The position numbers were made by a program, and so were the translations under genes. From Craspedostauros australis (taxonomy: Eukaryota), in NCBI GenBank assembly GCA_030167865.1, contig JALAGF010003692.1, positions 1 through 64,000 on the forward strand: a stretch of 64,000 bases of DNA, written 5' to 3'. The notes beneath the pieces are model-generated. The model saw only the letters and a list, made by a program, of their open reading frames with translations, was not told the origin of the DNA and searched no databases. This document shows, piece after piece, positions 41,001-58,066 of this stretch (positions are counted from its first letter, which is position 1; every line of letters begins with the position of its first letter).

Positions 41001-43582
41001 CATCGTAGCTCTGAGAGAGGAGCTGGATAGTCCAAGTGGTCTCAACGCGCGCAATCCTCCTGGCTCGCAGCGCAAGATGTACAGAATGGACGCCAACCAT
41101 GACGGCAGCGGCATTGAGCGCAAAGGCTTCTTTCCAACGGCCAAAGATGATGCCAATCACGACAGAACTGGCATTGCCAGTGGTGCGAAGAGCAATGGGT
41201 ATAGCGTAATCAACAGAAAAGGGAGCGCAGATAGCCAATCAACCAGCACAATAACCCCAAGGAATGCACGCTTGGCAAGAAATGCAAGAAACGCGGCCAA
41301 CGGCGAGGACGGTGGTGACGAGATTGGCAATGATGCAACTAGTTTGCAGATGAGGATCGTCAGACAGGGGGAGACACAGATGGGAGGAGATGTGGATGAG
41401 GAATCGATGATGGCATCACGCTTGTGTGCGCTGCACTGGGTGATCGTGCTGTACGAAAGCGTGGTTCCAGATGTGTTGAAGGCCGATGTAAGTACACGGC
41501 GTGTTTTTGCCATGCGCGTATTGGTACTCTGCTTGAATGTATGGTGCGATGACGTCTATGTTCGTGAGTATTATCATAGTGCTGCCGTGGCGTTGTTCTG
41601 GCATTTGGTTGTTGTTGGTGTTGGTCGTTTTTGGACACCACGAAGTTCACCCTGCCAAAGCCCAATGCTCACGATTGTTTTCTCACTCATTTCACACGAT
41701 TGGGGCTGACGATGGATGGTATGTGACGATGGATCATGCAACGATGGATATTTCGTTTTCATTGCTTGCCGAATGACAGTATGCACGAGAATTCATCGTT
41801 CCGATCATTCATCAAATGGTGGAGAACCCCCCAAACAGAATCATCGAAAAAAGCCTCCAAGTGCTTGCGAGAATCACTGTCCCCGAGCCTAACGAGGCGC
41901 AGTATGCTCCCGAGTCCAATTCAGCATCTCGTGGTGGACCGTCGCCGTTCCCAGATCCATCGCTGGATCCGCGTGGACATGAACATGGGCAGCCGCACGA
42001 CTCGCTGTCCCCGCTGGCAGGCCCCAACACCGCGTTTGCGTTGGACGTGATGGGTCCTTCGCGGAGCCGACTCAAGTCGAGGGATCGGGCTGTGTTTGCT
42101 GCCATCATCCGGCTGCATTCGTCCAACCCGCACCTATTGTGCGACTTATCTCGCGTGCTGACCTGCATGTGCCGACTGCAGCCACCAGAGTTTGTGTTCG
42201 TGTCGTTTGCCATCGAACTCGAGCAGTATATCAGAGACTATTGCAAGGTCACTGATGTTGTCGATAGCAGCCATGATGGTGCGGGTGCACGTGCTGGTGC
42301 AGGCATCGGTTCTGACGATGGAGACCAAAGGGCTGTATCCAGGACGAGACACGGAGGGACTAGAAGCAATGGTCATTCGCACGAAGATGATGAGAATGAC
42401 ACGACGGGTATGCCGATGACCAAGATGACGGTGGGATCGAGACAGCTGCAGTTCGTCAGCTCCTTCGTGCAGCAGATGTGCCACATTCTCCTCAACAGCA
42501 ACGAAGCGCAAGGACTTCGCAACATACTCAAGGATTGTGTTGGACGCAGGAACGAGAATGATAGGGATCGACGCAGGGTGCGCTTGTTCCACATCCTGCT
42601 GCATTCCTTCGCGCACAACCTGGTGTCAACCGTGCTGCTTTGCCTGTGGGCAGGGGCGTACAAGACGTCGTCGCTGGTGCTGCGTCACATCGATCCTTCG
42701 GACATCAACCTGATGTTCCTGCTGGAGATGGACAAGCTGGTGGAGATGATCGAGAGACCGGTGTTTCGCCATCTGCACGTTCGCATGCTAGAAAGTGATA
42801 GGCAGCCGACATCGGAAGGGAGCGGCACCATGCTGTTCCTGACGTTGAAGTCGCTCTTGATGATCCTCCCACAGAGCGCGTGCTTCCACATCCTGAAGGA
42901 TCGCCTGGTGAGCGCATCTCGCTTCCGCCAATCCGTTTTGTGCACCCCGAGAATCATGATCGGGGGCGGAGCTCTGGGTAAGGCCGCGGGAATGGGCGAG
43001 AATACGAGTGCGACCGCAGGTGAGGGCAAGCACGAAGACGATGCCAAGGATGGAACTGCGATCAACACCAACCACGGTGAAGATGAAGAGAAACGCAGCA
43101 ATGGTGGCAACCGTGGAAACGGCGGCAACGATGGTATGAGTCAAGCCGAGAGAGAAACACATGCATTCGTTTCAAGAGTACAGGAGGTGAGGATGATGCA
43201 CTACGAAGCAACTTGGCAGACCATTCGAGCGGGCAGTCTTGAAGTCCAGCTGCAAGAAGCAAAGACAGATCCCCCCAACGACGTCGATGGCGGCGATGGT
43301 GGCAACGGCCGGTTTGACGACATCGACAACGCCTTGGAGCTGGATCTTGATGATGACGGCGACCACAACGATGTCGACGACGACGACGACAGCAACCTCG
43401 GTGGCATCAACATTGACCTTGACGATGCGATCAACGTCGATGTTGACCTGGATGACGGTCTCGATGCAACAGCTCAAAGTGCTATCCCGACTGGACGAAT
43501 CAACGACCCCGTGGGAGTTGTTCAACCAGCAGTCGACGACAAAAGCTGGAAGCAGTTCTGGACAGATTCGAACGCTGCGTAG
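38086..43582 (+). CDS. VAC14: VAC14 homolog (HEAT-repeat scaffold of the PIKfyve/FAB1-FIG4 complex) with long low-complexity extensions, 3 exons, ~1682 aa
   Basis: Exons 38086-40694, 40851-41487, 41780-43582, all GT-AG and in frame. Motifs ERRRLAANEI, ARKGGLVAL, RVRYYATESLFNV, FADVDIEVQGAAALVDKKLKE, and the C-terminal EMDKLVEMIERPVFRHL and LKSLLMILPQSACFHILKDRL. Confidence 0.9.
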
Positions 43583-43906
43583 TTTTGTGGTGTGCGGTGC
43601 TCGGAGCCGAGCTGCCGGTGGGCGACACAACCGATTTGGGTGCTGGGATCGTGTGAGGTAATCGTGCCTCGTTATTATGGTGGGCTGAGCGTGACTTGTC
43701 TGGGTGACCATGGCGCTTCGTTGAAGTCATAATTATCGGATGTTATAATTTGACGCGTCTCCCAGTTGATGTGTTGTTTCCACGATGGCAGCGTCGTTCC
43801 GCCACGATCATTCACAGGGTTGATCATTCCTATTTGGACGCTGACGCCCAGAGTGCCAACACGAATACCATTGCCAATACAAGAGCACACACACAAAGAC
43901 ATTGTT

Positions 43907-44602
43907 ATGCGCACCATGTTCAACCGAAGCCACGGCATCATCTTCCGACTTTGCATCATCGCTGCGGCCTTGACGTTGCACCACACCACGTGCAATGATG
44001 GCCCCTCCATCTTTGTGTCCGCGTGCACCGTCTGCAGCATGGCATCAGCCACCCGCATTCCCTTCCTCAAATCCAAATTCGACAAGCTGCACTCGCCGGA
44101 GTTGGTTGCGTTCCTGCAGAATTCCGGTGTTCGTGCCAGCGCGCTGTCGTGGCAGACAGTTGGACACAAGTGGAGACAGCAAGCGCTGCATCGTCCGGTT
44201 GTCATGGCGGGTGTGGTCGCGGCTGTGGGTATCATCGGACGCCGGTGGATGGTCACTGACAGTGCGGCAGACGCGGAGGAGGACAGCGATTCAGAACCTG
44301 GCCACAATTCCAAAGACAAAGTCAAAGACAAGGCAGGCAGCGAGGACGACAAGAAACCACTCTCCAGCGCCATGGTGGCCACCATCGGGGTGTACAAGAA
44401 TTTCATCAGCCCCTTGCTGCCACCGGCATGCCGGTTCGTTCCCACCTGCAGTCAGTACGGTGTGCAGGCCATCAAGGAGTTCGGGCCCACAAAGGGGTGC
44501 GTCTTGATCGCCTGGAGGTTGCTGCGGTGTTCGCCGGTGGGTGGGAAGGGATACGATCCTCCCAAGTGGCCGCCTGTGCCCTACACCTACAGCAGCTACT
44601 GA
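43907..44602 (+). CDS. yidD: YidD-like membrane protein insertion efficiency factor with N-terminal extension, ~231 aa
   Basis: C-terminal IGVYKNFISPLLPPACRFVPTCSQYGVQAIKEFG...WRLLRCSPVGGKGYDPP is the three-Cys YidD signature. The start codon is uncertain. Confidence 0.85.
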   Translation: MRTMFNRSHGIIFRLCIIAAALTLHHTTCNDGPSIFVSACTVCSMASATRIPFLKSKFDKLHSPELVAFLQNSGVRASALSWQTVGHKWRQQALHRPVVMAGVVAAVGIIGRRWMVTDSAADAEEDSDSEPGHNSKDKVKDKAGSEDDKKPLSSAMVATIGVYKNFISPLLPPACRFVPTCSQYGVQAIKEFGPTKGCVLIAWRLLRCSPVGGKGYDPPKWPPVPYTYSSY

Positions 44603-45285: not shown

Positions 45286-47127
45286 CTATCTCTTGGAGTA
45301 ATACCGTTCATCAAAATTCTCCATCTGCATGGGCATGTTCATCAGACCTTCCAGTCCTTCTAGCGGAGTTTGCTTTCCTTCCAGTATCCTGGCAATGCCA
45401 AACAGGATGGGGTACTTGAGGTCCATGCGGTATCCGTTGCATTCGGTCTTGATGAGGTCGACGACAGCCAGGGCCGTATCGACGCCTTCTGCCACCTCCG
45501 TGGTCGATGCGCGGATCTCCTCCATCGTTTCGCCTTTGCCGAGCCGGTAGCCGAATTTGCGATTGCGCGACAGTGGGCCGAAGCATGTGCCGAAGGTGTC
45601 TCCGACGCCTGTTTGATTGCGAGTGGTGTCATATGTATTGTGGTTGGGAATTGCGATGTTGCATTGTTCATTCATGACGTTGGCAGTTGGATGCGATGAT
45701 GGCTGTTTGGTGAGTCGATATTGAATTGATTGGATGCAACGCACGGCATCACGATGCATCACTACACACAGTTTCAGTGTCACTGTCATTGTCACTCCAG
45801 AATATTAGAAGCATCACGTTCACGTTCGCAAACACGTTCGCAAACACGCCCGCAAACACACACATACGCATGAGGACCCACCTGACAGACCAGCGATGGT
45901 ACTGGGACGCGCACCGAACGTCAATCCCAACCGCCGCATCTCGTTGCATCCCCGCGTGACGAGCCCGCTCATGGCGTTGGTGCCGAGACCGAGACCTTCG
46001 CACATGCCGGCCCCCACCGCGATGACGTTCTTGACGGCCCCGCCAATCTCCACCCCGATGACGTCGGCGGACGTGAAGCACTTGAACTTGTCGTCCGACA
46101 GCAGCGCCGCCAGATCGCGCGCGAGGTCGAGATCTTCCGATGCGATGACGACGGCCGTGGCGACGCCCTCGACGATCTCCATGGCGAAGGAGGGACCCGA
46201 CAGGAAGGCCAAGGGGCGGTCCTCGCCGAGGCACTCGCGCAGGATGTCGGCCATGAATCCCAGGCTTGCCGTTTCGATGCCCTTGCTGACCGACAGGATG
46301 GGCGTGCCGGGCGGGACGTGGTCCTTGATGTCGTTGAGGAATCGTCGAGAGTACTGGCACGGCACAGCGTGGACGATGTAGGTGGCGTCGGGCAGGCATT
46401 CCTCCGGCTTCGTCGTGGCGCGGATGCGTTGGTGCAGCTCGATGCCGCTCATATACCGCGGGTGCGTGTGATTGGTGTTTATCTGTTTGGCAATGTCCTC
46501 CGATCGCACGAGGAGGGTGGTGGGATGTCCCTGTCGTGCGCAGACGGTGGCCATTGCGAGACCGAAGTTGCCGCCGCCCATGACCGCCACGCGGACCGGG
46601 TAGGGTGGCGGTGTGCTGGCCTTCATGTGGAGCGTTGTCGAAGAGATGCTGCGGCTGCTGCCGCTTCGGCGTTGCGAAAGTGCGGATGGGTCGTTTCCGA
46701 ACAATGGCGTCCGCACGAAGGCTTGGCCGTTGTTCCTGCTGATCGCATTCATAGTATTGGCATTGTTTTGGGTACGAGCAGCATTGCCATGAACACCAAT
46801 CCGTCTCTGATGATGTAGCGGTTTGATTGACAGCGCATCCACAACCATGCCGAATCTGAGGTCTGGGATCAAGGCTGATATGAAGGTGGCATCAATAGGC
46901 ATGGGAATAGGAATGGATGTGAATGATGTGATGGTGCTGACTGTCTCATGAGGTTGGCCTGCTGCGAGTGTACTCGGATTGAAAAAAGCATCGCCATTGC
47001 CAATATCACCGAGAGTGTAACCAGCACTGACACCACCTCCCAATTGCTGCTGCCCCGTCATTGCTGGGAAACATAGCTGGCAAACCAGCACTGTTGAGGC
47101 CGAGATCAGTCCTATCGTTCGCTTCAT
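45286..47127 (-). CDS. gpsA: NAD(P)H-dependent glycerol-3-phosphate dehydrogenase (bacterial GpsA type) with long N-terminal targeting region, 2 exons, ~522 aa
   Basis: Exons 47127-45882 and 45608-45286, join GLSG|VGDTFGTC. Motifs VAVMGGGNFG, SKGIE, LSGPSFA, GGAVKNVIAVGAG, SRNRKFG, VAEGV. Confidence 0.93.
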
Positions 47128-47998
47128 GATTGCTGTATTGATTTGTGATTGCCTTCTTTGGTGTGTCGATGTTATCGCGATTGCGATTGTTGCTGTTGTT
47201 GCAAGCAGAGTACGGATAGTTGTTGCTTGCACAGAGCTTTGCTTTGCGAGTACTTCAATGAAATCTCAATGAGTTGAAGTCACTCGTGTTGTTTACTTTG
47301 TGCGTTCTCTTGGCGTCAACTCAATTCAAGTGACACGAGGCGACGTGAAGTCCGGTGGCAAAACCGATCCGATCAAGAGTTGAAGCCAAACAATCAAGTG
47401 GTACTCTCTCTGCTCTCTTTGGAAAGTTTGTTGTGTTGGCTGGTGTCGTTCCAGAGTGTCTCTTTGCCTGCGTCTGTGCGAGCCTTGGAGTTGGATGAGA
47501 AGATGATGATGATCAATGCGTAATGCGAAAAGTCGAGCCCAAAGACCGGTTCACATGAGGCGCCGACAGAGAAGCTGCGGACTGGTGAAGTGCAAATGCT
47601 CGTCCAATTCCAACAGAGAGCACTGCCTGGGGGTTGATTGGCTTCTTTGTTGCGATTGTCCTGATCCTGTCTGATCGCAGATAGCTTCTTGTGGTGTGGG
47701 AGTGGTATTGTGGTGGTTTCCGCTCTCCTCTCTTCCTTCGTTTCCCTTGTTTCGTCCTCATCCCTCATCTCTTGTCTCGTGGTGATCATGACGTGACGAC
47801 TGGTGTCGCTGAATGGTTGGTGCAGAAGACGGGTTGTCAACCCTTCAAAAATCTCTTCGTCTTTGGTGTATCGTCAACTGACGTCATTGAATTGCTCGAA
47901 TGGGTCGCAGCCGAAATGAACAACATTTGTTTTCAGTCGAATTAGTCGCATGGGTCGTAACGACCAGTTCGAGTAAAACATCAAGTTTCCTGCATCCA

Positions 47999-48016: not shown

Positions 48017-48341
48017 AACGATTCGCGTTCTCTCTGGTGAAGAGGAGACAGAAGGCATCACGTTTGGATACGATCCACTTCACACGCCACACGCGACGAG
48101 CACGACAGGGCGCGGCAAGAGGCAAGAAGACTACCTCCTCTTTGCATCCACAGGAGGCATCAGCATTGCTGGCAACACCACACAAGAGGACCACAGATAG
48201 AGCCCACCGTCGATCATCTCACAGCGCGGATACTATACACCCTCTATTGCATTGCATTGCATCGCATCGCATCGCATCAACAAGAAAGAAAGAAACAGAG
48301 TGCATCAGAGCCCGGGAACTTGTATTCGCAAACGAACGAAC

Positions 48342-49905
48342 ATGTCGTTGCAATTCGGGAATTCAATCAAGGCCACCATGGCGCGCAGATCAGCAATCTG
48401 GAGCGCTGCGGTGGGACATGCCACAGTGCATCAGATACCATCGCAAACACCAGCGCAAGCAAGCCGAGGATATCAGACTCGGCTCAATCCGTCTCATCTG
48501 GTGTTCGGTGACACAAGCGCCTTCGTCGTCAAGGCCATCGCGCCAGAATTCAAGACCTACAATTCGACCATGTCGTTGGATTACACGAAGCGAGGGCGTC
48601 TGCTTTTGGAGTGGGTGCCGAAACTTGGAGATGGTACGTCATGTCTTGTCATGTGGTGTCTTGTCATGTCACATCATGTGGTGTCTGAATACCATATCCC
48701 CATCATTCAATGCTATCACAATGTGTTTGGAAAGTGTTTGGACCTGCTTTGCGGGGGTCGTTGGAATGAAGAGGACGGCACTCTCTTCAAGCAGCATGGG
48801 CAACCGTAGTTATTGTCAATGGTGTCAATGGTGCTATTGACAGGAATGCGGTATCCTCCTGCAGGAATGCAGTCGTGCCCTCTTCTCACGGATTGCGCTG
48901 CTTCTTTCCACACAACCTGCCGACGGTCACTTGCTGTACCCTTCCATTATCATACCTTGCCTCACGAATACTATGGCGTCGCAATGCACTGCCTGACAGG
49001 CAAGTTCAACTGGAAGACGCCGGTGCGTTTTGCGCTATCGGCGGATGAAGCTGCCGAAGTCGTTTCGAGAACGGCGATGCAGGAAAAGACTGAGTTCTTT
49101 CGCAAAGTATCTTCCAGCAACGGCCAGTACCAGAACCAGAGCTCGGGCGACTTTGATGGAGAGCAGGTGGAGAAGGTGTGTACGGTCGAACCCTCGGACG
49201 ATGGCTGCGTCGAATTCAAGTTGGATCATCAGATCAGCGATCCTGCTGGGCCACGCAGAAGTATCGTCATAGATCCGGTGAGTCTGTGCTGCGCTATTTG
49301 TGTTCCGTACTCTGCAGTTGAACGTGACTGTCAAGCAGAGGAGTCGTCTGTTCCACTTCACCGCTTCACTTCACCCCACAATACTGCATGGGTATACTCC
49401 TTTGTGTGAATGGCCTGTGCCTCCGTGCATCTTCTGCATATTCGATGCATTTCGGGCCGATGTACCATTTCCATTGGTCGCATGCCTCCGTCTACCGTCA
49501 TCATCTTCATCATCTTCTCACACGCGCTCATGCCGCTGCTTCCCTTGGTTGTGAATACATGGATCTACTTCATGCATGGATATCATGGCCATCCATATAC
49601 ACGCGCACGTTGTTCATCCACCATACATTCGTGCTTTCCACCAGAACGCACCCATCTCAATCCGCCTCATGGGAGGGGAATATCTTGTCATCAAGTCCAT
49701 CATCGAGTTCTCCATTCCGTACTTGATCGGATGGGCACCTGCGATGGAGGCATCATTGCAAGCAAACATTGACAAGGCAGCAGACGAATCGGGCGGTCTC
49801 GGAGGTGATGGCTTCCACGATAACTACAACCGCAACAGCCGAAGCACAAACTACCACACTCGCGACAGCGTCTTGAGAGGCAACAACAACGACGTGCCCT
49901 TCTAG
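48342..49905 (+). CDS. Whirly-family single-stranded DNA-binding protein, probably mitochondrial, 3 exons, ~276 aa
   Basis: Exons 48342-48633, 49000-49277, 49645-49905 (GTACGT..ACAG and GTGAGT..CCAG), in frame. The spliced protein follows the plant Whirly pattern: APEF, GRLLLEWVP, KFNW...FALS..E, EFF, EKVCTVEP..DG, ISIRL..GEY.V..S..EFSIPYLIGW. The N-terminus is Arg/Ser/Ala-rich and lacks acidic residues. Confidence 0.8.
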
Positions 49906-50707
49906 AGAGAGAGATTATGGTCTCATGCGATGGAATACTCTGCCATGCTCATGTAATCTTCTTAATGTTGAAATGACAGAGAGGAATACGTTGTCGCAAC
50001 ATCTCTTGGTATTCCGCGTTCGCAAATCCAAGCCATCGCGAGCGTCTTGTCGTCGCTTTGTGTGTCTTGTGAGAAATAGATCTTGCCATTTTATTCAGGA
50101 ATAACCGTGGCTGAAATACGTGTCTTCAGAATTGGCTGTGTCGCAATTGCCGCATCTCCCAATCATTTCGACAAAGAATTTGGGATCGAGGACAACCACC
50201 AAGAATTCTGCGCGACGTTCGCACGCGGTCGCCACTCACCTCGCTTTTGCGCGCAGTTCGCGCGGAACCACACATGACATCAGACGCCTTCCTGTGAAAC
50301 ACACCACAACTCACATTCGTCACAACTATCGGTTCTCTGTGTGCTCTGGTCCACACCCGTCTCCAGCAACTCTGTGCTCGACCTGACACACCGCTCCACC
50401 CTACGCTACTTCGCTCTGGTCCACTTCAGATCGGTTTTGGCTTCTCTGAGTCTCTGACTCTGAGCCAACACGGACGTCGCTGAGATTCTCTTGGGATCAA
50501 CTGCTCTCTGGAGAGATATCTCCGACGGCTCCAAGCGCCAACACAAGCAACAGCTGTTCACAAGCAAAGGAAAAACTGCCGATTGGGCGGCTTTTCCTCT
50601 CCTTGCGATTGCAATTGCATACGCGCTCTCCTCCGCACCTGCGACGACCAAACGCAGCTCCGAATACGGGTACAATCACCACAGCAACTACGCAGACAGC
50701 TGCAACC

Positions 50708-53004
50708 ATGAGCGCCACACTGCGACAAACCTGCAAACGGCGGCAGCTCCTCTCTGTTGTCCGCAGCAGCGATAGGATGGTCGCCAGCATTTGGACCGGA
50801 AGTATCGGCAGTGGCAACAGCATCAGGAGCGGCGAAGCTGTGGAGATGGTGGCTCCGCAGCATGCAGGCACCGTTGGTGATGGATCACGACTTCAGAGAT
50901 TCAGCACAAGTGCCAGAGTGGCATCGTCCCTGTGTGCCTCGGGGACCATGAGTATTGCTTTCTCAACTCCGCCTCCGCAGAGGCCTGCCAATGGTCTGCG
51001 CTCATCATCGACCTTCGTGTCTGATTCGCAGGACATGCCATCGTCCAGCGGTGCATCGGACGATGCAGTCAATGAGATATTGCAAACGCTGGACATTCCA
51101 CTCGATGACGCATCGCACACCGAACACGCGGCCTCCGCAGATAAATCCATCATGAAAATGGACGACGTCATGCGATTGGCCAACCAGAAATGCACGCCGC
51201 TCAAGCTCGTCGACATGTACAAATATGCCGTCGACTTTAACGATTCAGAGCAACGGCTGCGCAACGCGCAATTCATATACAAGGAGCTGCCCATCCGCAT
51301 CGCCCAGCGCACCGTGGATCTGCTCACGTTGCCGCATGGCCTCAGCAACGCGTTGCCCATTCAGCAGGTTACCTACGTGTATCTGCGGTACATGAAGCGG
51401 TTGCAGGATACGAAGAATCCAACCAACATGGAGGAGGAACAGCAGTTCACGGACATCTTGCAAGGTGCGTATGTGTGGGCATTTGCCTCTTGGCATGCTT
51501 TCATTTTCGATGAGTGTGCGGCATTGTGATTGCATTCGGATATGAGCAAGCTCGCATGGAGCAAAGCAGAAGAACAACAACCCCTACAGACATCCACGCC
51601 GCGTCAGAGCGGACTCTAATCTTCTGCCATGTCAAAAGTTCGCAACCTTCGTCATTCGTTGGCAGACGGAATCGGAAACAACTATTATACTTCGCAAAGC
51701 ATATCGATCTCGTGTTGCTTTGTCGACGACGGCAATGGCAAACATGCCTACTTTGCGTGCAAGCAACTAACCCATCAATACAATCGCTGATGCAACCACT
51801 GATCGAACGATTCATCAATCAATTCGGGCGGCAACTAACGCGGAAAATCCATCCAAAACGCTTAATGCTTCCGAAATATTCATAGGCATCGTGCTGGACA
51901 GAACATCCATCCCAACGGCCATCGCACGTGGTGTCGCCACATGGCGAGAAACCGAGGGCATCCAGGACACCGACGCCGATTCAGATCGTCTCCTCGAGAT
52001 GGAGGAGGCCCTGTATCGATTCTTCACGGCGCGCGTCGGTCTCAGATTCCTCGCCGAACATCACATCCTCAGCTCGCCGTCCCGACTGCACTACAAGGAG
52101 CTGCGACGACAGCAGACCTGCCTGCAGGAACTCGAGGATGACTTCTTCCTGGGCTGCATTCTCACCGACTGCTGTCCGAAGCGCGAGCTGCAGAAGGTCG
52201 TCAAGGACATCACGCGCCGCACCAAGGATTACTACGGCATGTGTCCCGAGCTCGACATTGTGGAGATCCAGAAGGGACTGGGGCCCTTCACTTACGTCCC
52301 GCATCACTTGCACTACATGGCCGGCGAGCTCATCAAGAATTCATGTCGTGCCACAATCCAGAGGTGAGTTCGATCGCTAGGTCTTCGTTCGTTCGTTCGC
52401 TCATTCATTTGCTCAACTTGCGTTCATGCGATCCTCGAACCTCTCTCACCACACACTGACGCTGCGCTCACACGCGCTTGCACATGTTCGTATATGTTTG
52501 CGAACTACTGTCAATCTGCGGCTGGTACGTACTCTCGACAATATCATATACGATGTGCTCAGGCATCTCCAAAGCCGCGGTGCTGGCATAAAGAAACCAT
52601 TGCATCCCATCAAAATCGTCATCGTCCGAGGCGCCGAGGACGTGACAATCAAAGTCGCCGATCGTGGCGGCGGCATCCCACGTTCTAAAATCGATCACAT
52701 TTGGAAATTCGCGCATTCCACAACGAGCGAAGAAGAAGAGAGCTCCGATTTCGGCGTCGACCAGGTCACAGGGAGCAAGATCCGCGGATTTGGATTGCCA
52801 TTGGCGCGCATCTACGCGCGGTATTTTGGTGGCGAACTGACGCTCAAGAGCATGGAGGGATACGGACTCGATGCCTACCTGTACCTGCCGCGGCTGGGTG
52901 AGAATTGCGAGAATCTGCCATCGCCCGTGCGGCAAAGTCCCGCAATGGACATCTCCTTGCCGCGCATGGGATTGCAGACTACGGCGAGCACGACCAGGAA
53001 TTAA
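50708..53004 (+). CDS. PDK: Mitochondrial pyruvate/branched-chain alpha-ketoacid dehydrogenase kinase, 3 exons, ~558 aa
   Basis: Exons 50708-51464, 51886-52363, 52563-53004. Motifs NAQFIYKELPIRIAQR, RFFTARVGLRFLAEHH, YVPHHLHYMAGELIKNSCRAT (N-box), IKVADRGGGIP (G1), GFGLPLARIYARYFGGEL..SMEGYG.DAYLYL. Confidence 0.92.
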
Positions 53005-53747: not shown

Positions 53748-56700
53748 TCACCCCGCCACCGAAAACGATCGCAGGGATTCAATCCCCCTCTTCAGCACGA
53801 GCGCCGACCGCAACGAATCCAACTCCCGCTTCAATTCGTTGCCCTCGAAGGAGGACAGGATCGGTCGTTGGAATTGTGCCTTGTACAATGCCGCACCGCA
53901 CAACGTCGCCGTGATGGTGTTCCCCGTGTTCTTCTCCCGCTCTTCGTCACCAGCGTTGTGACTGCCATCCTGGTCGGCAGCCGCATGGGCGCCTGTTCCA
54001 TCGTCGCCGTCGCCGTGGTTGGTATCATCACCATCATCTGCAGTTTGCGAATCCTCTTTGGATGTTTTGAAACCACGGTTCTTGCGCAGCTTGGCCAATC
54101 GATCCTTGACACTTTGCAGTGCCACCTCTCTCTCCATCAGCGTCATGTGCGTCGATTTGGATTCGTACGATTCCGAGGTCAGCAATGTTCTGGCATCGAC
54201 GGGGCCATCGGCAGAAGTCGAATTGGAGTTGTCTGGTTGCGCATCGCCATTCTGCTGCTGCTGCTGCTCGCGTTGCTGCTTCAGCGTCATGAGCTGCATC
54301 TGTCGTCTAGCCGTGTCTTCCAGCAACCGAATGCCGCGCAAGATGTTGACCTTGTCCTTGACCATGTCGACCTTGAGACGTTTTTGCATGAGGTCGACGA
54401 AGATCATGTCCTTCTGCACTTCATTGTGCAGAATTTGCAGCTCTTCTCCGACGGGACGGTTGTCGAGGTCCATCACGTCGTCATCATCCATGCCGATGGC
54501 ACCGCTCGCGTTTGGATCGAAACCGGACGATTGCGCCAGCATCTTGTCCCCCATTTCGATGGCGGCAATCTTCTCGAGCAAGCGCACCACCCTGGGATCG
54601 TGTTCCCCGAATCGATCCCATCGGATGTTTAACGCCTGCCGGTAATGTTCCAACGCGTGCTCCTTCTCGCTTTCCATGTCGCTGTCGGGCGCTCTGCAGC
54701 GGTAGATCGCCCAGTGCACATCGCCCATGTTGGACCAGACCGTGGCGACGTCCTTGTCATCCTCCCCCAGATTGGATTGCATGATCTGCAGAGCCTCCGA
54801 GTAGGCCAGCAGGGCATTCGAGAACTCCCTGCGCAGGTAGTGCACGCTGCCAATGTTGTTGAGCGTCTTTCCTACGCTGAGGGAGTCCTTGCCCAAAATT
54901 TCTCGCTTGATGCGCAGGCTCTTCTTGTAGGCCGCCATGGTCTCGTCGTGCGTCGCCTCTCCGGACCGTTGGCGCAGGTACCCGATGTTGTTGATGGAGG
55001 TGGCCATGCTCACGAGCAGCTTGGCGTCCGCCTTTTCTGGATTGCGCACCAAATTCTCTCCCTCCAGCGCCTCGTCGAGTATGTCATCCGCCTCGTCGAG
55101 CAAGGTGTGGAAGGTGCGTCGCTTCAACCGCAGCGCCTTGGTGTAGGTCTCCATCGCCTTGTCGTAGTATCCCTTTTCGAAGAGGAGGTTTCCCTTGGCA
55201 TCCAACGCCGCAGCAGCCCTCGCGATGCGCTCCGTCTCACGTCGTTGCGCTCGCTGTTCTGCCGGTGAAAGCGCGTGCGGAGAACCGCCTGCGCTGCGTT
55301 TGGTGGGAGAGGATGCCGGTTTGGAGGCAGGACCAGATGCAGACGGAGTATGTCCGTTGCTCCTGGTCTTTCTGGTTGGAGTCTGCACCGTGCGACAGAG
55401 GAGATCGAGGTCCACGTCGTCATCATGAGCGTCGTCGTCATCGTCGCCTTCGTCATCCGTGCCTTGCCTCGTCGCCTTGTTGGTGGGTGTCGACCTCTTT
55501 GATTTGCGGAATGCCATCATGCCCTTGGCCGCCTGGAAGGAGGAGGCCACGGCTCTGGTGGCGCTTCTGCCGAATGTTTTCTTCCTGCCGGACGTGGCAC
55601 TGATGCGTTGGCGCCGTTTCATGGTTGCGGAGGACACGAAGGTGCCATCCTTGGACGGCACGAGCGTGGCCGATGCGGATGGCGCGGACGACAACGATGA
55701 TTCTGCTTCGGATGCGTCGGGGTTGAGGACCTCATTGCGCTTCGCCTTGGTGGTGGTGGAAGACGAGACCGCGGCCTTGGAGAGATTGGACAGAGACTTG
55801 GCGGTCGCAGTGTTCTGTGCCTGCGTCTGTGCTTGCATGTGCGCCTTCCCCTTGTTCTTGTGCCTGTTGGAACGAAAGAGAAATCCCTTCTTGTGCGACA
55901 TTGATGATTTGGAGGTTGGCGTAGCGGCGGTAACCACAGCATCAGCCGATGCCGTGCGTGTACGGTTGCGAGCGCTGGTATCATGATTGGGCGTGGACGG
56001 TGACTGTTCTTGCACCGCCATCTTTCGGACTGCCGCAGTATCGCCGTGTGAATCGTTCGATCGTGTTTCCACACGATGTCGGTTCTCGTTTTGGTACTGA
56101 TTTTGGGAATGTTGTTGTTGCGAATGTTGTCGATGCTGATGTGCGGCGTCATCGTCCTCCGGCACATCATGGGGTTGACGAGAGCGACCGGTGCTATGCC
56201 GTCGGCTCTTCTGTTGTGGTTGTTGTTGTTGCTGCTGTTGCTGCTGTTGTTGCTCCTCCTCCTGGCTTTGAGTTCGGTTGTGCTGGTATGTGCGCGAGTG
56301 ATGCGATACACTTGCGTTCGTTCGCAATGCAGCATTGGCAGTGCTGTTGGCAGTCTCCCTGCCATGCGATGACCGTCCGTTGGTGTGACCACTGGCGTGC
56401 TGATGTTGTTCTGCAAGATTGTTGTGCACATGTTGTGGCAGAGTGGCGGACGCAGACATCGGCATTGCCATCGATGATGAGGATGGCGAAGCGGCGGCAG
56501 TCAAAGACGCAAACTGGCCTGCCGTGATGGGTTGCGCAGCCACGCTTGTATTCGCATTTGCATGTGTTTGTTCATGTGTATTGCGTGTGCGCGAGTGCGG
56601 ATGCGGATGTGAATTGGATGCGGAGGTGCTCTGGGTGGAGGCGGAGTTGGTGGAGCCTTTGTTGCCTGCATTCGCGTACAGGGACTCGTGCACGTCGATG

Positions 56701-56906
56701 CGCACATGCTCCGTTTTGGGTTCCGCATGACTGCCTGTGGTTCTATTTGCAGCTGCAGTAGCGGTACCACCGTTGGCATGCTTCGCACTGTTCGTGGCCT
56801 GCTGCGCATGGGTGCGTCTGTCTCTGTGCTTGCTCTTGCCGTCGGCATGCTGCGACTGTCCCCGTTTCCCCGCCGTTCGACGGAGCTTCTGCAACAGCGA
56901 GGGCAT
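53748..56906 (-). CDS. Large single-exon TPR protein (kinesin-light-chain/nephrocystin-3-like TPRs) with ~560-aa disordered N-terminus, 1052 aa
   Basis: TPR helices ALDAKGNLLFEKGYYDKAMETYTKALRLKR, SMATSINNIG, SVGKTLNNIGSVHY...ALLAYSEALQI, DVATVWSNMGDVH...ALEHYRQALNIR. Poly-Q tracts. Confidence 0.88.
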   Translation of the reverse strand: MPSLLQKLRRTAGKRGQSQHADGKSKHRDRRTHAQQATNSAKHANGGTATAAANRTTGSHAEPKTEHVRIDVHESLYANAGNKGSTNSASTQSTSASNSHPHPHSRTRNTHEQTHANANTSVAAQPITAGQFASLTAAASPSSSSMAMPMSASATLPQHVHNNLAEQHQHASGHTNGRSSHGRETANSTANAALRTNASVSHHSRTYQHNRTQSQEEEQQQQQQQQQQQPQQKSRRHSTGRSRQPHDVPEDDDAAHQHRQHSQQQHSQNQYQNENRHRVETRSNDSHGDTAAVRKMAVQEQSPSTPNHDTSARNRTRTASADAVVTAATPTSKSSMSHKKGFLFRSNRHKNKGKAHMQAQTQAQNTATAKSLSNLSKAAVSSSTTTKAKRNEVLNPDASEAESSLSSAPSASATLVPSKDGTFVSSATMKRRQRISATSGRKKTFGRSATRAVASSFQAAKGMMAFRKSKRSTPTNKATRQGTDDEGDDDDDAHDDDVDLDLLCRTVQTPTRKTRSNGHTPSASGPASKPASSPTKRSAGGSPHALSPAEQRAQRRETERIARAAAALDAKGNLLFEKGYYDKAMETYTKALRLKRRTFHTLLDEADDILDEALEGENLVRNPEKADAKLLVSMATSINNIGYLRQRSGEATHDETMAAYKKSLRIKREILGKDSLSVGKTLNNIGSVHYLRREFSNALLAYSEALQIMQSNLGEDDKDVATVWSNMGDVHWAIYRCRAPDSDMESEKEHALEHYRQALNIRWDRFGEHDPRVVRLLEKIAAIEMGDKMLAQSSGFDPNASGAIGMDDDDVMDLDNRPVGEELQILHNEVQKDMIFVDLMQKRLKVDMVKDKVNILRGIRLLEDTARRQMQLMTLKQQREQQQQQNGDAQPDNSNSTSADGPVDARTLLTSESYESKSTHMTLMEREVALQSVKDRLAKLRKNRGFKTSKEDSQTADDGDDTNHGDGDDGTGAHAAADQDGSHNAGDEEREKNTGNTITATLCGAALYKAQFQRPILSSFEGNELKRELDSLRSALVLKRGIESLRSFSVAG

Positions 56907-58066
56907 GGGCTGCTCTCGACTTCTCCTTCCTCGCTTGCCTTCCCCAGTTGATTGCCGTTGCTTGATCGTTGCTTCTTGCTCCCCTTGATTGTTCTTCGAT
57001 CAACTGCTGCGCTTGCCAGAGTCGTCGTGCTTGCTATCGTTGCTATCTTCGTTGCTGTGTTCTTGTTGGTGCTTGACGCCCCAAAGGCCCAGCACTCTGC
57101 ATGCAGATGCAAGCTATTGTGATTATGATTGTTCTGCTCTCCTTCGTCTCTGGAAAGGAGGCGATGTTTTGCAGATCACTCTCGTGTCTCTCGTTGTGCC
57201 TGTCTTGTTTGTTTGTGCGTGGAACAGTTGGCGCGTCTCTTGGTGGCAACGATGACAGCAAATGTGTCTTTGTGTAGTAAAACTACGCGCACTGTGGTGT
57301 CCCTTGTGACAACAAGTGTTCGTGACTTTGTTGGTCACGATTGCGGGAATGGGAAACTCCAAATCGTGTTCTGTCAAATCACTCAGCGAAGTGAGATGGC
57401 GGCGTGTGTGTGTGGACAAGTGATTCACTTCAACCAAGCATGGTACTGGCGCGGACACAAGCCAACGCCTCCTTCACAAGCACTTCCCAGTGCCGGATCT
57501 CAACGAGATGCAATACAATGCAATGCAATACAACGCAACGCAACGCGATGGTTGCACATCGAGGTCACACCTGTCATGCAGCACCATTGCTGCAAGTACA
57601 CACTCACATCTCTGTTGTTATGAGCTTGAGCTGCGTTTGGATACTCATACCATACGTTGCCATAACTATCTTTGGCCATCCGTTGCATCGTATTATACTT
57701 ATGTATTCTATCTCACATTCGGTTGCTGACGATAGTGGTGGCAGTGCTGCGTGTTGGCGCCATCCTCCGCTGATTTCATGTTGCATTTTGCTTCCGTAAG
57801 AATTCGGAACACGACTGGTTGCTTGGTGCTTCACCATGACAAGAATCATGCTCATCATCCATCATCCATGCACGACAGGCTCATGTGAGTGCGATGGTGC
57901 ATCCGAGTCCGCTGCCTCCAAGAATTGGATACTCCTCGTTCGTGCTCCACGCTTATTCTACTCCTGCCAAACAGTGGGAGACAAAAGTTCGTTGTCTGTA
58001 ACCCCCTCTCCATTCCTGCAAGACAATGACAATGTGCCAATCCAACAGTACCAATACCAGCACCGA

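Follow-up and report, generated by a model that had tools for sequence, protein, structure and literature searches.

A diatom nuclear Whirly gene encoding a disordered tail with a conserved Val-Pro-Phe tip, a putative two-state docking peptide

The ssDNA-binding protein gp2.5 of phage T7 has an acidic tail that ends in Phe and docks on the T7 polymerase and helicase. In E. coli SSB, self-docking and partner-docking coexist, and binding of the bacterial SSB-Ct also relies on an acidic run. According to a passage in PMC5872125, the SSB-Ct hexapeptide DDDIPF makes essential interactions. For plant Whirly proteins, excerpts of two papers state that Glu271 and Trp272 contact Lys188 in the StWHY1 crystal and that mutation of Trp272 raises ssDNA binding (PMC9070903), and that the N- and C-termini project outward in Whirly assemblies (PMC3245945). 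The likening of plant Whirly tails to SSB is already in print: a passage of a 2019 review (PMC6963530) calls them “analogous to bacterial SSB,” and a further passage describes Whirly proteins as “unique to plants.” In Table 3 of PMC4827209, the number of Whirly genes counted in Phaeodactylum and Nannochloropsis is 0. A literature search that covered titles and the starts of abstracts of the papers listed, with most subscription journals outside its coverage, found no description of a diatom or stramenopile Whirly or of its tip.

The window analyzed here is a 64,000-nucleotide stretch of a Craspedostauros australis contig, in which we found a nuclear gene of a raphid diatom encoding a Whirly protein. 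On the plus strand between positions 48342 and 49905, three open pieces are joined in frame by removal of two canonical introns, giving a CDS of 831 nt that encodes 276 aa and ends in ...GNNNDVPF-stop. The features, with residue numbers referring to the transcriptome-derived protein P0001 (see below), are as follows:

48342-48633, plus strand: exon 1 (292 nt), with the first in-frame ATG at 48342 and the second at 48378
48378-48485, plus strand: N-terminal extension (residues 1-36), basic, without Asp or Glu, pLDDT about 50, with no signal-peptide-like hydrophobic stretch
48486-49791, plus strand: Whirly core (residues 37-227), interrupted by both introns; confidently modeled, with a helix after each of two beta-sheets and a further C-terminal helix at 208-227
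48634-48999, plus strand: intron 1 (366 nt), GT..AG (GTACGT...ACAG), phase 1; its removal matches P0001
49000-49277, plus strand: exon 2 (278 nt), middle of the Whirly domain, 21.6 bits with the Whirly profile when taken alone
49278-49644, plus strand: intron 2 (367 nt), GT..AG (GTGAGT...CCAG), phase 0; its removal matches P0001
49645-49905, plus strand: exon 3 (261 nt, counting the stop codon TAG at 49903-49905), encoding the last strand, the pair of C-terminal helices that contains PYLIGW, and then tail and tip
49792-49890, plus strand: low-complexity linker (residues 228-260), pLDDT about 48-57, with a degenerate HDNY at 49816-49827
49891-49902, plus strand: C-terminal tip Asp-Val-Pro-Phe, directly followed by the stop; placed by the gene model, P0001, and conservation

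P0001 (264 aa; MMETSP1442, Craspedostauros) agrees with the spliced model at every residue from Met13 to the C-terminal end, so that RNA-derived data support both junctions and the C-terminus. It starts at the second in-frame ATG (48378; Kozak-like context GCCACCATGG) and not at the first (48342; context GAACATGT), so that the product has either 264 or 276 aa. Thus, the original prediction of three ORFs spliced in frame into a 276-aa protein with a DVPF-stop end is upheld by the canonical introns and, at both junctions and in the C-terminal frame, by RNA-derived data, although the start may be Met13.

The joined protein scores 47.4 bits against the Pfam Whirly profile (PF08536; cut-off 23) with an E value of 2.2e-12, the match covering positions 2-110 of the 136 in the profile, whereas exon 1 (13.6 bits) and exon 2 (21.6 bits) remain below the cut-off when searched singly and exon 3 gives no match. 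This agrees with the earlier description of individually unremarkable ORFs whose joined product follows Whirly motifs through PYLIGW. With phmmer, the crystal chains of AtWHY1/2/3 and StWHY1/2 were matched at E values of 5.5e-11 to 2.9e-08, and a profile of 95 relatives matched the same chains at 7e-41 to 5e-37 (StWHY2, 7.3e-41). Pro203, Gly207, and Trp208 in the PYLIGW helix-turn are nearly invariant, as in plant Whirlies. Nine alignment columns reach at least 90% conservation across the 95 rows; among them is that of Lys144, which aligns with a Lys in the plant RKVLKVEP strand. A Pfam scan at E values up to 1 returned Whirly alone and no OB fold (PF00436), and the fold search likewise gave Whirly folds. 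The protein is not a member of the bacterial-type SSBs, to which its resemblance is architectural; by sequence and predicted fold it belongs to the Whirly family, and its homology suggests that it binds ssDNA.

KGKAAL is a hallmark of higher-plant Whirlies, and its second Lys is needed for 24-mer assembly. The motif is absent from the diatom protein, in which it aligns to GDTSAF, and the clade consensus at this position is approximately G-E-x-(C/A)-x-L, mostly G-E-x-x-x-L. Plant-type higher-order assembly therefore cannot be assumed. Because green-algal Whirly-like proteins also lack KGKAAL, as mentioned in a passage of PMC9070903, the motif marks a land-plant subgroup and not the Whirly family.

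The AF2 monomer model (mean pLDDT 82.5, pTM 0.72) comprises strands at residues 39-98, a helix at 100-111, strands at 116-186, a helix at 188-205, and an extra helix at 208-227, with an insertion of about 20 residues modeled at lower confidence between strands at 121-140. All of the 12 Foldseek matches listed with E <1e-9 are plant Whirly crystal structures (target-normalized TM 0.71-0.82), followed by PUR-alpha and MRP1/2 (E 3e-4 to 7e-3, target TM 0.41-0.63). The Whirly fold claimed at the outset is borne out by these matches, as a prediction for a protein of unsolved structure. Four copies of residues 30-218 were modeled with a score of 0.86 (best of three controls, 0.00), a contact agreement between runs of at least 79%, and a partner pLDDT of at least 77; the interface lies on helices 100-109 and 187-216. 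In the calibration, which was on two-copy and not four-copy cases, 21 of 30 proteins solved as one-chain pairs attained the mark set for this score, but none of 23 known as single chains; among eukaryotic proteins 17 of 29 attained it, with only 1 of 7 among those without an older solved relative. The alignment of relatives was not used in the run. Since plant Whirly tetramers have already been solved, the pass may be memory. The four-copy model shows likeness and not binding; the core is predicted to form the usual Whirly tetramer through its helices, in line with the tetrameric state that the original description gave for Whirly proteins in general.

Diatom plastid proteins need an ER signal peptide. 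The first 30 aa of the protein contain no Asp or Glu and three Lys or Arg residues, and the highest hydropathy of any 12 aa is 1.18. PF-tipped relatives whose sequence begins with Met and whose extension reaches 15 aa or more are similar, with at most one Asp or Glu in 17 of 19 and a signal-peptide-like hydrophobic 12-mer in 1 of 19; such a 12-mer (>2.0 on the Kyte-Doolittle scale) is found in 1 of the 68 other relatives. Judged by composition, which is a crude measure, the N-terminal extension is a probable organelle presequence, most likely mitochondrial. By the same crude measure, plastid targeting is thought unlikely, as no 12-mer exceeds 2.0.

The tail differs from the core in the AF2 monomer, with pLDDT values of 48-57 over residues 228-264. 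The tip is left undocked (pLDDT about 50-57), and the monomer model is uninformative either way on self-docking of the tail. The last 37 aa include seven Asn, six Gly, four Asp, four Arg, and three Ser and have a net charge of 0. Calling this segment a Gly/Asn/Asp-rich low-complexity linker is thus fair as to its composition and its low pLDDT, but the linker is also rich in Arg and carries no net acidity. The HDNY within it (49816-49827) is a degenerate copy of the SPHNY motif of the closest relatives. The 95-row alignment includes 42 PF rows, in which the tail extends 21-65 aa past the invariant Trp; the distal tails of PF rows consist of 30% Gly, 13% Ser, 10% Asn, and 8% Asp, with a mean charge of -0.7.

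The Pro-Phe ending recurs in 47 of 150 relatives (the window's own fragment left out), with VPF in 30 of the 47 and Val, Leu, Ile, Met, or Thr at position -3 in 40. Chance is ruled out as its source: shuffling the last 30 residues of each of the 150 relatives 1,000 times yielded 0.42 PF ends on average and never more than 3. Internally, PF occurs at 56 of 36,631 positions. In an end-anchored comparison, identity is 0.81 over the last 3 residues and 0.13 over the 20 before them, and the xVPF-COOH tip is kept across many relatives that are less than 50% identical, while the linker varies freely in length and sequence. When the window's own fragment is included, 108 of 151 proteins align through the last helix; 48 of these end in PF (41 with Val, Ile, Leu, Met, or Thr at -3) and 3 in P[YW], while the last residue is a different aromatic in 20 and the remaining 37 end otherwise. 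Within the 64-row clade to which this protein belongs, each of the three large subclades includes PF tips. On the tree, the PF label changes 19 times, compared with 21.8 times when labels are shuffled, and 62 of the 500 shuffled sets need no more changes than that; because this is close to the shuffled level, PF is scattered and does not define one clean clade. Of 30 clusters, 9 have an organism name. The named PF carriers are four diatoms (Cylindrotheca fusiformis, a Bacillariaceae MAG, Fistulifera solaris, and Mayamaea pseudoterrestris) and one parmalean alga, Parmales sp. “scaly parma.”

The acidic part of the tip is less constant. Asp or Glu occupies position -4 or -5 in 26 of the 47 PF tips; at -4, Asp and Gly occur 14 times each, and at -5 Gly is commoner than Asp. 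The tip under study has a single Asp at -4 and an Arg at -9. The original prediction expected a terminal (D/E)(V/I)PF to be conserved and the linker not to be, which is right for the xVPF end and for the linker but less so for the acidic residue at -4. Similarly, the likeness to an acidic-hydrophobic-Pro-Phe SSB tip is clear for the VPF, which is kept beyond chance, and less clear for the acidic run of DDDIPF, which is reduced to one Asp here. The acidity of the diatom tip is far below that of bacterial DDDIPF and weighs against an SSB-like function.

Compared with the plant Whirlies (AtWHY1/2/3, StWHY1/p24, and StWHY2; PDB 4koo, 4kop, 4koq, 1l3a, and 3n1h), the diatom protein has a homologous core with 20-30% identity over about 180 columns (Foldseek). 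Shared features are the fold, the helix-mediated four-copy model, the helix-turn with Pro203, Gly207, and Trp208, and an N-terminal targeting extension (putative here). The C-terminal tails resemble each other in being disordered and ending in an acidic/aromatic tip, but ends this short allow no proof of homology and the tip motifs differ: (D/G)-V-P-F-COOH here and D-x-E-W-x-(R/K) in plants. Apart from its diatom host, which contrasts with papers that describe the family as specific to plants or to the green lineage, the protein is further distinguished by GDTSAF in place of KGKAAL, the insertion at 121-140, and the extra helix at 208-227. With bacterial SSB it shares a tetrameric ssDNA-binding design (predicted here), a variable Gly-rich linker, and an aliphatic-Pro-Phe ending with a free carboxylate, whereas the folds are unrelated (Whirly here, OB there) and the diatom tip lacks a run of three to four acidic residues on a tail with a net charge near 0. 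The likeness to T7 gp2.5, a C-terminal aromatic residue on the flexible tail of an ssDNA binder, is an analogy only, as the fold differs and gp2.5 has no Pro-Phe; gp2.5 works in a T7-type replisome, and algal organelle replisomes use TWINKLE, a T7 gp4-like helicase. PUR-alpha and the trypanosome proteins MRP1/MRP2 are nucleic-acid binders with weaker fold matches; they show no sequence match, form other oligomers, and have no such tail, and the diatom protein is not one of them.

Taken together, the locus is best explained as a diatom nuclear Whirly gene with a disordered tail whose conserved xVPF tip probably acts as a two-state docking peptide, the functional part of this explanation being drawn from analogy. 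The core would assemble as a tetramer through its helices and send four flexible tails outward. Without DNA, the tip would fold onto the basic DNA-binding face of its own protein and dampen binding, as is reported for the Glu-Trp tail of potato WHY1; ssDNA occupying that surface would free the tip. The terminal Phe and carboxylate of a freed tip could then plug a pocket in a partner from the organelle replication or repair machinery, in the manner of SSB DDDIPF, and the SPHNY-type motif upstream in the closest relatives might provide a second contact point. The diatom tip may be the Whirly acidic/aromatic tail in another spelling.

Tips that bind a pocket on a partner typically have strictly conserved last two residues and a free carboxylate. 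This consideration bears on a reading that we regard as rather improbable, namely, that the tip is the diatom spelling of the “putative autoregulatory domain” of plant Whirlies, which folds back near a conserved Lys and tunes ssDNA affinity or the oligomeric state without recruiting any partner; the strictly kept last two residues point instead to a partner pocket. The StWHY1 contact and the Trp272 mutant speak for such a role, and a passage of PMC9070903 says that Glu271 and Trp272 are highly conserved in all Whirlies. Also favorable are the conservation of Lys144 and its alignment with the plant Lys, although the alignments do not establish that Lys144 is StWHY1 Lys188, and the tail is undocked in the AF2 monomer. 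Tips ending in (E/D)WPF, which exist in plant-side relatives without a taxon name, combine the plant Glu-Trp with Pro-Phe and fit a self-contacting tail. As self-docking and partner-docking occur together in E. coli SSB, this reading overlaps the two-state explanation that we prefer.

The same (E/D)WPF tips tell against a bolder alternative, the strong form of the original interpretation, in which a Whirly replaced the canonical OB-fold mitochondrial SSB in diatoms and the VPF tip is a functional copy of the SSB-Ct, convergent or transplanted, that docks RecG, RecQ-like helicases, exonucleases, or RNase H. Because plant-side relatives end in (E/D)WPF and plant Whirlies in EWxR/K, an aromatic tip is suggested to be an old Whirly feature and not an SSB import, and most tips have little or no acidic run, with Gly as frequent as Asp at -4 and commoner at -5. 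Nevertheless, the architecture corresponds point for point (the predicted tetrameric ssDNA-binding core is followed by a disordered linker rich in Gly and by a hydrophobic-Pro-Phe-COOH end), 40 of the 47 tips, in which Pro-Phe is invariant by the way they were chosen, have Val, Leu, Ile, Met, or Thr at -3, where DDDIPF has Ile, and some relatives have frankly SSB-like tips (...EDDDDPF, ...YDDVPF, ...SNDDVPF, and ...ADDSDLPF). According to passages of PMC4166229, SSB repertoires are highly variable among photosynthetic eukaryotes. The literature on diatom organelle SSBs that we searched holds no statement on a canonical mitochondrial SSB. On this evidence, replacement seems doubtful. We are similarly skeptical of its widest form, in which diatoms and the parmalean sister lineage would use a Whirly in place of an OB-fold SSB as the hub that coats ssDNA in their mitochondrial nucleoids. 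The DNA-binding core would have undergone non-orthologous displacement while the interaction interface was retained, with an SSB-Ct key (aliphatic-Pro-Phe-COOH on a Gly-rich tether) that was kept or reinvented and of which the plant Glu-Trp and (E/D)WPF ends would be diverged versions. If that key was kept or reinvented, bacterial-derived or T7-like organelle enzymes could have kept their SSB-tip pockets.

Two further readings have much less in their favor. PDZ domains of the HtrA/DegS type bind hydrophobic-x-hydrophobic-COOH, and Val-Pro-Phe, a hydrophobic-x-Phe at the free C-terminus of an exposed disordered tail, might be a tag recognized by a protease or a PDZ-domain protein that controls turnover of the protein and not DNA transactions. 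This is very unlikely, as a degron needs no long Gly-rich spacer and the same architecture has a well-established docking role on ssDNA binders such as SSB and T7 gp2.5. Finally, the Pfam name, “Whirly transcription factor,” and the discovery of plant WHY1 as a promoter-binding factor, mentioned in a passage of PMC9070903, would suit a mainly nuclear transcription factor with the tail as an activation domain; however, both this protein and its relatives begin with a presequence-like extension, the tail lacks overall acidity (net charge 0), and plant Whirlies are primarily organellar according to a passage of PMC6963530, so that this reading is barely credible.

Our analysis identifies the locus as a transcribed, intron-containing diatom Whirly gene. 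The clade to which it belongs is large and has diverged deeply, and its named members come from several diatoms and one parmalean; consequently, the history of the family and the inventory of organelle DNA maintenance in diatoms need revising. The Val-Pro-Phe tip offers a simple handle on how a non-OB ssDNA binder talks to the replisome and makes it possible to ask whether SSB-type tip docking arose twice. Even if the strong SSB reading is wrong, the tip marks a probable self-regulatory element.

Other endings occur within the family. Two named diatoms (Entomoneis) end in Tyr, a nested subclade of 12 rows is almost tail-less, and some of the non-PF ends may stem from models cut short at an intron. 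A profile search with the 95-row alignment returned six proteins, none of them a newly named carrier. Three relatives end in “WLDEL”; reading these endings as ER-retrieval signals was rejected, as the N-termini of these proteins are presequence-like.

In the window, three open pieces in different frames lie within 48342-49905 of the + strand (ORF scan), and the original prediction had them splice in frame into a 276-amino-acid protein ending in DVPF. The joined model gives exactly that reading frame. The coding sequence has 831 nt and 276 codons, ends ...GNNNDVPF with TAG directly after, and is interrupted by two introns with canonical ends, of 366 nt (GTACGT...ACAG) and 367 nt (GTGAGT...CCAG).

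Exons of the spliced Whirly gene model
48342-48633, + strand, exon 1
49000-49277, + strand, exon 2
49645-49905, + strand, exon 3

With exon 2 alone as query, a 264-amino-acid protein (P0001) was found in a transcriptome collection; its source name reads “MMETSP1442 ... ORGANISM=Craspedosta...”, truncated, and the sole NCBI taxonomy genus to begin this way is Craspedostauros, a raphid pennate diatom. By script comparison, the spliced model is identical to P0001 from residue 13 to the last, so that both splice junctions, the frame of exon 3, and the C-terminus are confirmed by RNA-derived data. Because the first residue of P0001 is encoded by the second in-frame ATG (48378, context GCCACCATGG) and not by the first (48342), the product has either 264 or 276 amino acids; residue numbers here follow P0001. 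Six copies of a GCATC/GCATT pentanucleotide (96% matches) form an array at 48249-48278, 64-93 nt ahead of the first ATG and probably in the 5' UTR or promoter of the gene, and a 25-nt unit occurs twice (87% matches) at 48638-48686, directly after the intron 1 donor site.

The joined protein matches Whirly as its sole Pfam family (47.4 bits against a curated cutoff of 23; E 2.2e-12); the single exons score below the cutoff. Among solved structures, sequence matches to P0001 were to plant Whirly proteins only (E 5.5e-11 to 2.9e-08), and a profile of 95 relatives matched these chains too (E 7e-41 to 5e-37).

Solved structures matched by P0001
4koo, 4kop, 4koq: Arabidopsis WHY1, WHY2, WHY3
1l3a: potato WHY1/p24
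3n1h and its mutants: potato WHY2

An AlphaFold2 model of P0001, made from an alignment of the 95 relatives (mean pLDDT 82.5, pTM 0.72; confident over residues 39 to about 227), consists of two beta-sheets with a helix after each, plus a further helix at 208-227. In a Foldseek search of the PDB, all 12 listed matches with E <1e-9 were plant Whirly crystal structures (E 5e-12 to 2.5e-10; target TM 0.71-0.82), followed by PUR-alpha and MRP1/MRP2, Whirly-like folds that match less well. Profile, plant chains, and model thus agree with the Whirly fold originally proposed, which the diatom protein is predicted to have. The family assignment is not new, because databases already tag these proteins PF08536.

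A four-copy assembly through the helices is predicted as well. Four copies of residues 30-218 gave a complex score of 0.86 (best of three controls, 0.00), with at least 79% of contacts shared between runs and a partner pLDDT of at least 77, and the predicted interface helices (100-109 and 187-216) are those that form the plant tetramer interface. The mark passed was calibrated on two copies, not four, and the prediction did not draw on the relatives' alignment. Of 30 proteins solved as one-chain pairs, 21 reach this mark, as against none of 23 single-chain proteins; for eukaryotes the figure is 17 of 29, falling to 1 of 7 among those for which no older relative had been solved. Since plant Whirly tetramers are in the PDB, the pass may be memory; the predicted helices are compatible with a plant-type interface, which does not in itself establish the tetrameric state. 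The higher-plant motif KGKAAL is replaced by GDTSAF in the diatom protein and by roughly G-E-x-(C/A)-x-L in its clade. According to one review, green-algal Whirly-like proteins also lack KGKAAL (PMC9070903), the second Lys of which is described as driving 24-mer formation in potato WHY2 (PMC3245945).

Beyond the PYLIGW helix and the additional helix lies a tail, residues 228-264, with a pLDDT of about 48-57; it contains 7 Asn, 6 Gly, 4 Asp, 4 Arg, and 3 Ser among 37 residues and has a net charge of 0. For comparison of C-termini, an exhaustive representative search yielded 244 relatives at E <=1e-3 (61 at <=1e-10), of which the best 150, together with P0002 from a separate search, form a stored set of 151 proteins. 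The 95-row alignment holds 95 of the 108 proteins that align through the last helix, leaving out 12 rows of extreme length, very long or very short, and P0003, the exon-3 fragment from the window itself.

C-terminal ends in the stored set (best 150 of 244 plus P0002)
108 of 151 proteins aligning through the last helix: PF ends in 48, with V/I/L/M/T at -3 (counted from the C-terminus) in 41 and another residue there in 7
Same 108, other ends: P[YW] 3; other aromatic 20; otherwise 37
150 proteins without P0003: 47 end in PF
Position -3 in these 47 tips: Val 30, Leu 5, Thr 3
Shuffle control (last 30 residues of each protein, 1000 shuffles): mean 0.42 PF ends, maximum 3
Internal PF dipeptides: 56 in 36,631 positions
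Last three residues of the 47: mean identity 0.81
20 residues before the tip in the 47: identity 0.13 (end-anchored, ungapped)

The conservation test proposed with the original prediction is therefore positive, the tip being kept while the linker is not. In the 42 PF rows of the 95-row alignment, a tail of 21 to 65 amino acids (median 42) follows the invariant Trp; Gly makes up 30% of its distal part, Ser 13%, Asn 10%, and Asp 8%. A second motif, S/N-P-H-N/S/G-Y, precedes the tip by 10-30 residues in 14 of 150 proteins, all close relatives (P0004-P0038), and is degenerated to H-D-N-Y in the diatom protein (49816-49827). In the closest relatives Gly-rich sequence comes after the motif, which recalls the His-containing “putative copper-binding motif” before many plant Whirly tips. 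Three relatives end in strongly acidic tips nearer the bacterial SSB or phage type than that of the diatom protein (P0193, ...TSDDDIF; P0053, ...SDNDDPFST; P0147, ...EDDDDPF). Another, P0006, ends ...NDNDTPF and has 659 amino acids, more than twice the usual length, with three matched stretches; it represents either two gene models run together or a fused or tandem Whirly.

Organism names were found for 9 of 30 relative clusters examined.

Named carriers and their C-terminal ends
Cylindrotheca fusiformis, a Bacillariaceae MAG, Fistulifera solaris, Mayamaea pseudoterrestris: PF tip
Parmales sp. “scaly parma”: PF tip (the parmalean member's own end, ...GELPF)
Two Entomoneis species: Tyr end, non-PF
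Selaginella, Rhodiola: plant EWD(K/R) end, non-PF

A quick maximum-likelihood tree of 76 rows (aligned from residue <=60 through >=208, <450 amino acids, without P0003) splits into groups of 12 and 64 rows with support of 100. The smaller contains both plants, three NWLDEL-ended proteins, and three PF rows (PPF or EWPF). The diatom protein sits in the larger, where each of the three large subclades has PF-tipped rows (8/16, 10/22, and 5/23) and a nested 12-row subclade is almost without a tail. No clustering of the PF label was detected on this tree (19 changes versus 21.8 when shuffled; 62 of 500 shuffles as low). Either the tip is old with frequent loss or change, or many non-PF ends are truncated models from intron-blind callers. 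On the plant side, P0071, P0120, and P0146 form a clade (support 98) with long, Gly/Ser-rich tails ending ...SNWLDEL, another aromatic/acidic tip; its likeness to an ER-retrieval signal is resemblance only, the N-termini of the three being presequence-like. P0128, P0138, and P0168 end ...GEWPF or ...GDWPF, joining the plant Glu-Trp with Pro-Phe, and may bridge the two tip types in evolution.

We are confident that this is a transcribed Whirly-family gene whose product ends in a conserved Val-Pro-Phe, carried by a variable tether of low model confidence, and the tip is probably a functional linear motif. C-terminal Glu271 and Trp272 of potato WHY1 contact Lys188 of the Whirly domain, and mutation of Trp272 raises single-stranded DNA binding (PMC9070903); Whirly termini project outward from assemblies (PMC3245945); a 2019 review raises the possibility that the tails of Whirlies make protein contacts in a way “analogous to bacterial SSB” (PMC6963530); and the bacterial SSB hexapeptide DDDIPF engages many partners (PMC5872125). 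By analogy with these precedents, we infer that the tip may be a docking peptide. Without bound DNA, the tail would fold back onto the basic DNA-binding face; with single-stranded DNA bound, it would be released, and the Phe and carboxylate could plug into a partner pocket. As a whole, this two-state mechanism seems somewhat better than an even chance.

The stronger reading, in which the diatom Whirly acts as an SSB with a bacterial-type partner-docking tip, appears unlikely to us. Bacterial SSB tips use an acidic run as well as Pro-Phe, as in DDDIPF, whereas the diatom tip is Val-Pro-Phe after one Asp on a tail without net charge. Acidity is weak across the 47 PF tips too, with Asp at -4 in 14 versus Gly in 14 and D/E at -4 or -5 in 26. 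Moreover, acidic/aromatic tips are already present in the Whirly family, with (E/D)WPF ends on the plant side of the tree, and the tip of the diatom protein may have come down from Whirly ancestors instead of imitating SSB. The analogy itself is partly anticipated in print, by the 2019 review (PMC6963530).

The first 30 residues of P0001 contain no Asp or Glu, three Lys/Arg, and no signal-peptide-like stretch. Of 19 PF-tipped relatives that begin with Met and have an extension of 15 or more amino acids, 17 show the same pattern. This composition suggests an organelle presequence. Plastid import in diatoms requires an ER signal peptide, and mitochondria are therefore the likelier destination.

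In the papers compared, Whirlies are called “unique to plants” (PMC6963530) or “mainly found in plants” (PMC3245945), and are described as gained “in the early green lineage,” red algae being without them (PMC4166229); their origin is also placed in the ancestor of Chloroplastida. A transcription factor census gives zero for Phaeodactylum tricornutum and Nannochloropsis gaditana (PMC4827209). Among the papers listed for Whirly with diatoms, stramenopiles, or SSB tails, in a library with few subscription journals, none concerned a diatom Whirly or its tip. The ochrophyte Whirly clade as such, its conserved Val-Pro-Phe tip, and the SPHNY motif appear to be undescribed, a modest surprise for workers on organelle genome maintenance, and the tip lends itself to a clean, cheap experiment.

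The neighbors of the gene are ordinary, unrelated eukaryotic genes of the diatom nucleus, and their order offers no clue to function; across the locus, the ORF scan of the other strand showed short chance ORFs and nothing more.

Neighboring genes
41777-43582, + strand, Vac14 homologue (Fig4-binding domain, E 7e-33)
43754-44602, + strand, YidD-domain ORF, 282 amino acids (residues 206-269 match PF01809, E 3.7e-25)
45820-47265, - strand, glycerol-3-phosphate dehydrogenase (catalytic domains from residue 226 onward only)
50450-53004, + strand, mitochondrial BCKDK/PDK-type kinase, just downstream (at least three open pieces: BCDHK_Adom3 twice, then HATPase_c)
53748-56999, - strand, TPR-repeat protein, 1083-amino-acid open frame, an ordinary nuclear gene

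The late start of the dehydrogenase domains implies a long N-terminal extension or unrecognized introns. YidD is a bacterial-type membrane protein insertion efficiency factor, encoded here on a nuclear contig with a long N-terminal extension before the domain, and this ORF may be an organelle-targeted relic.
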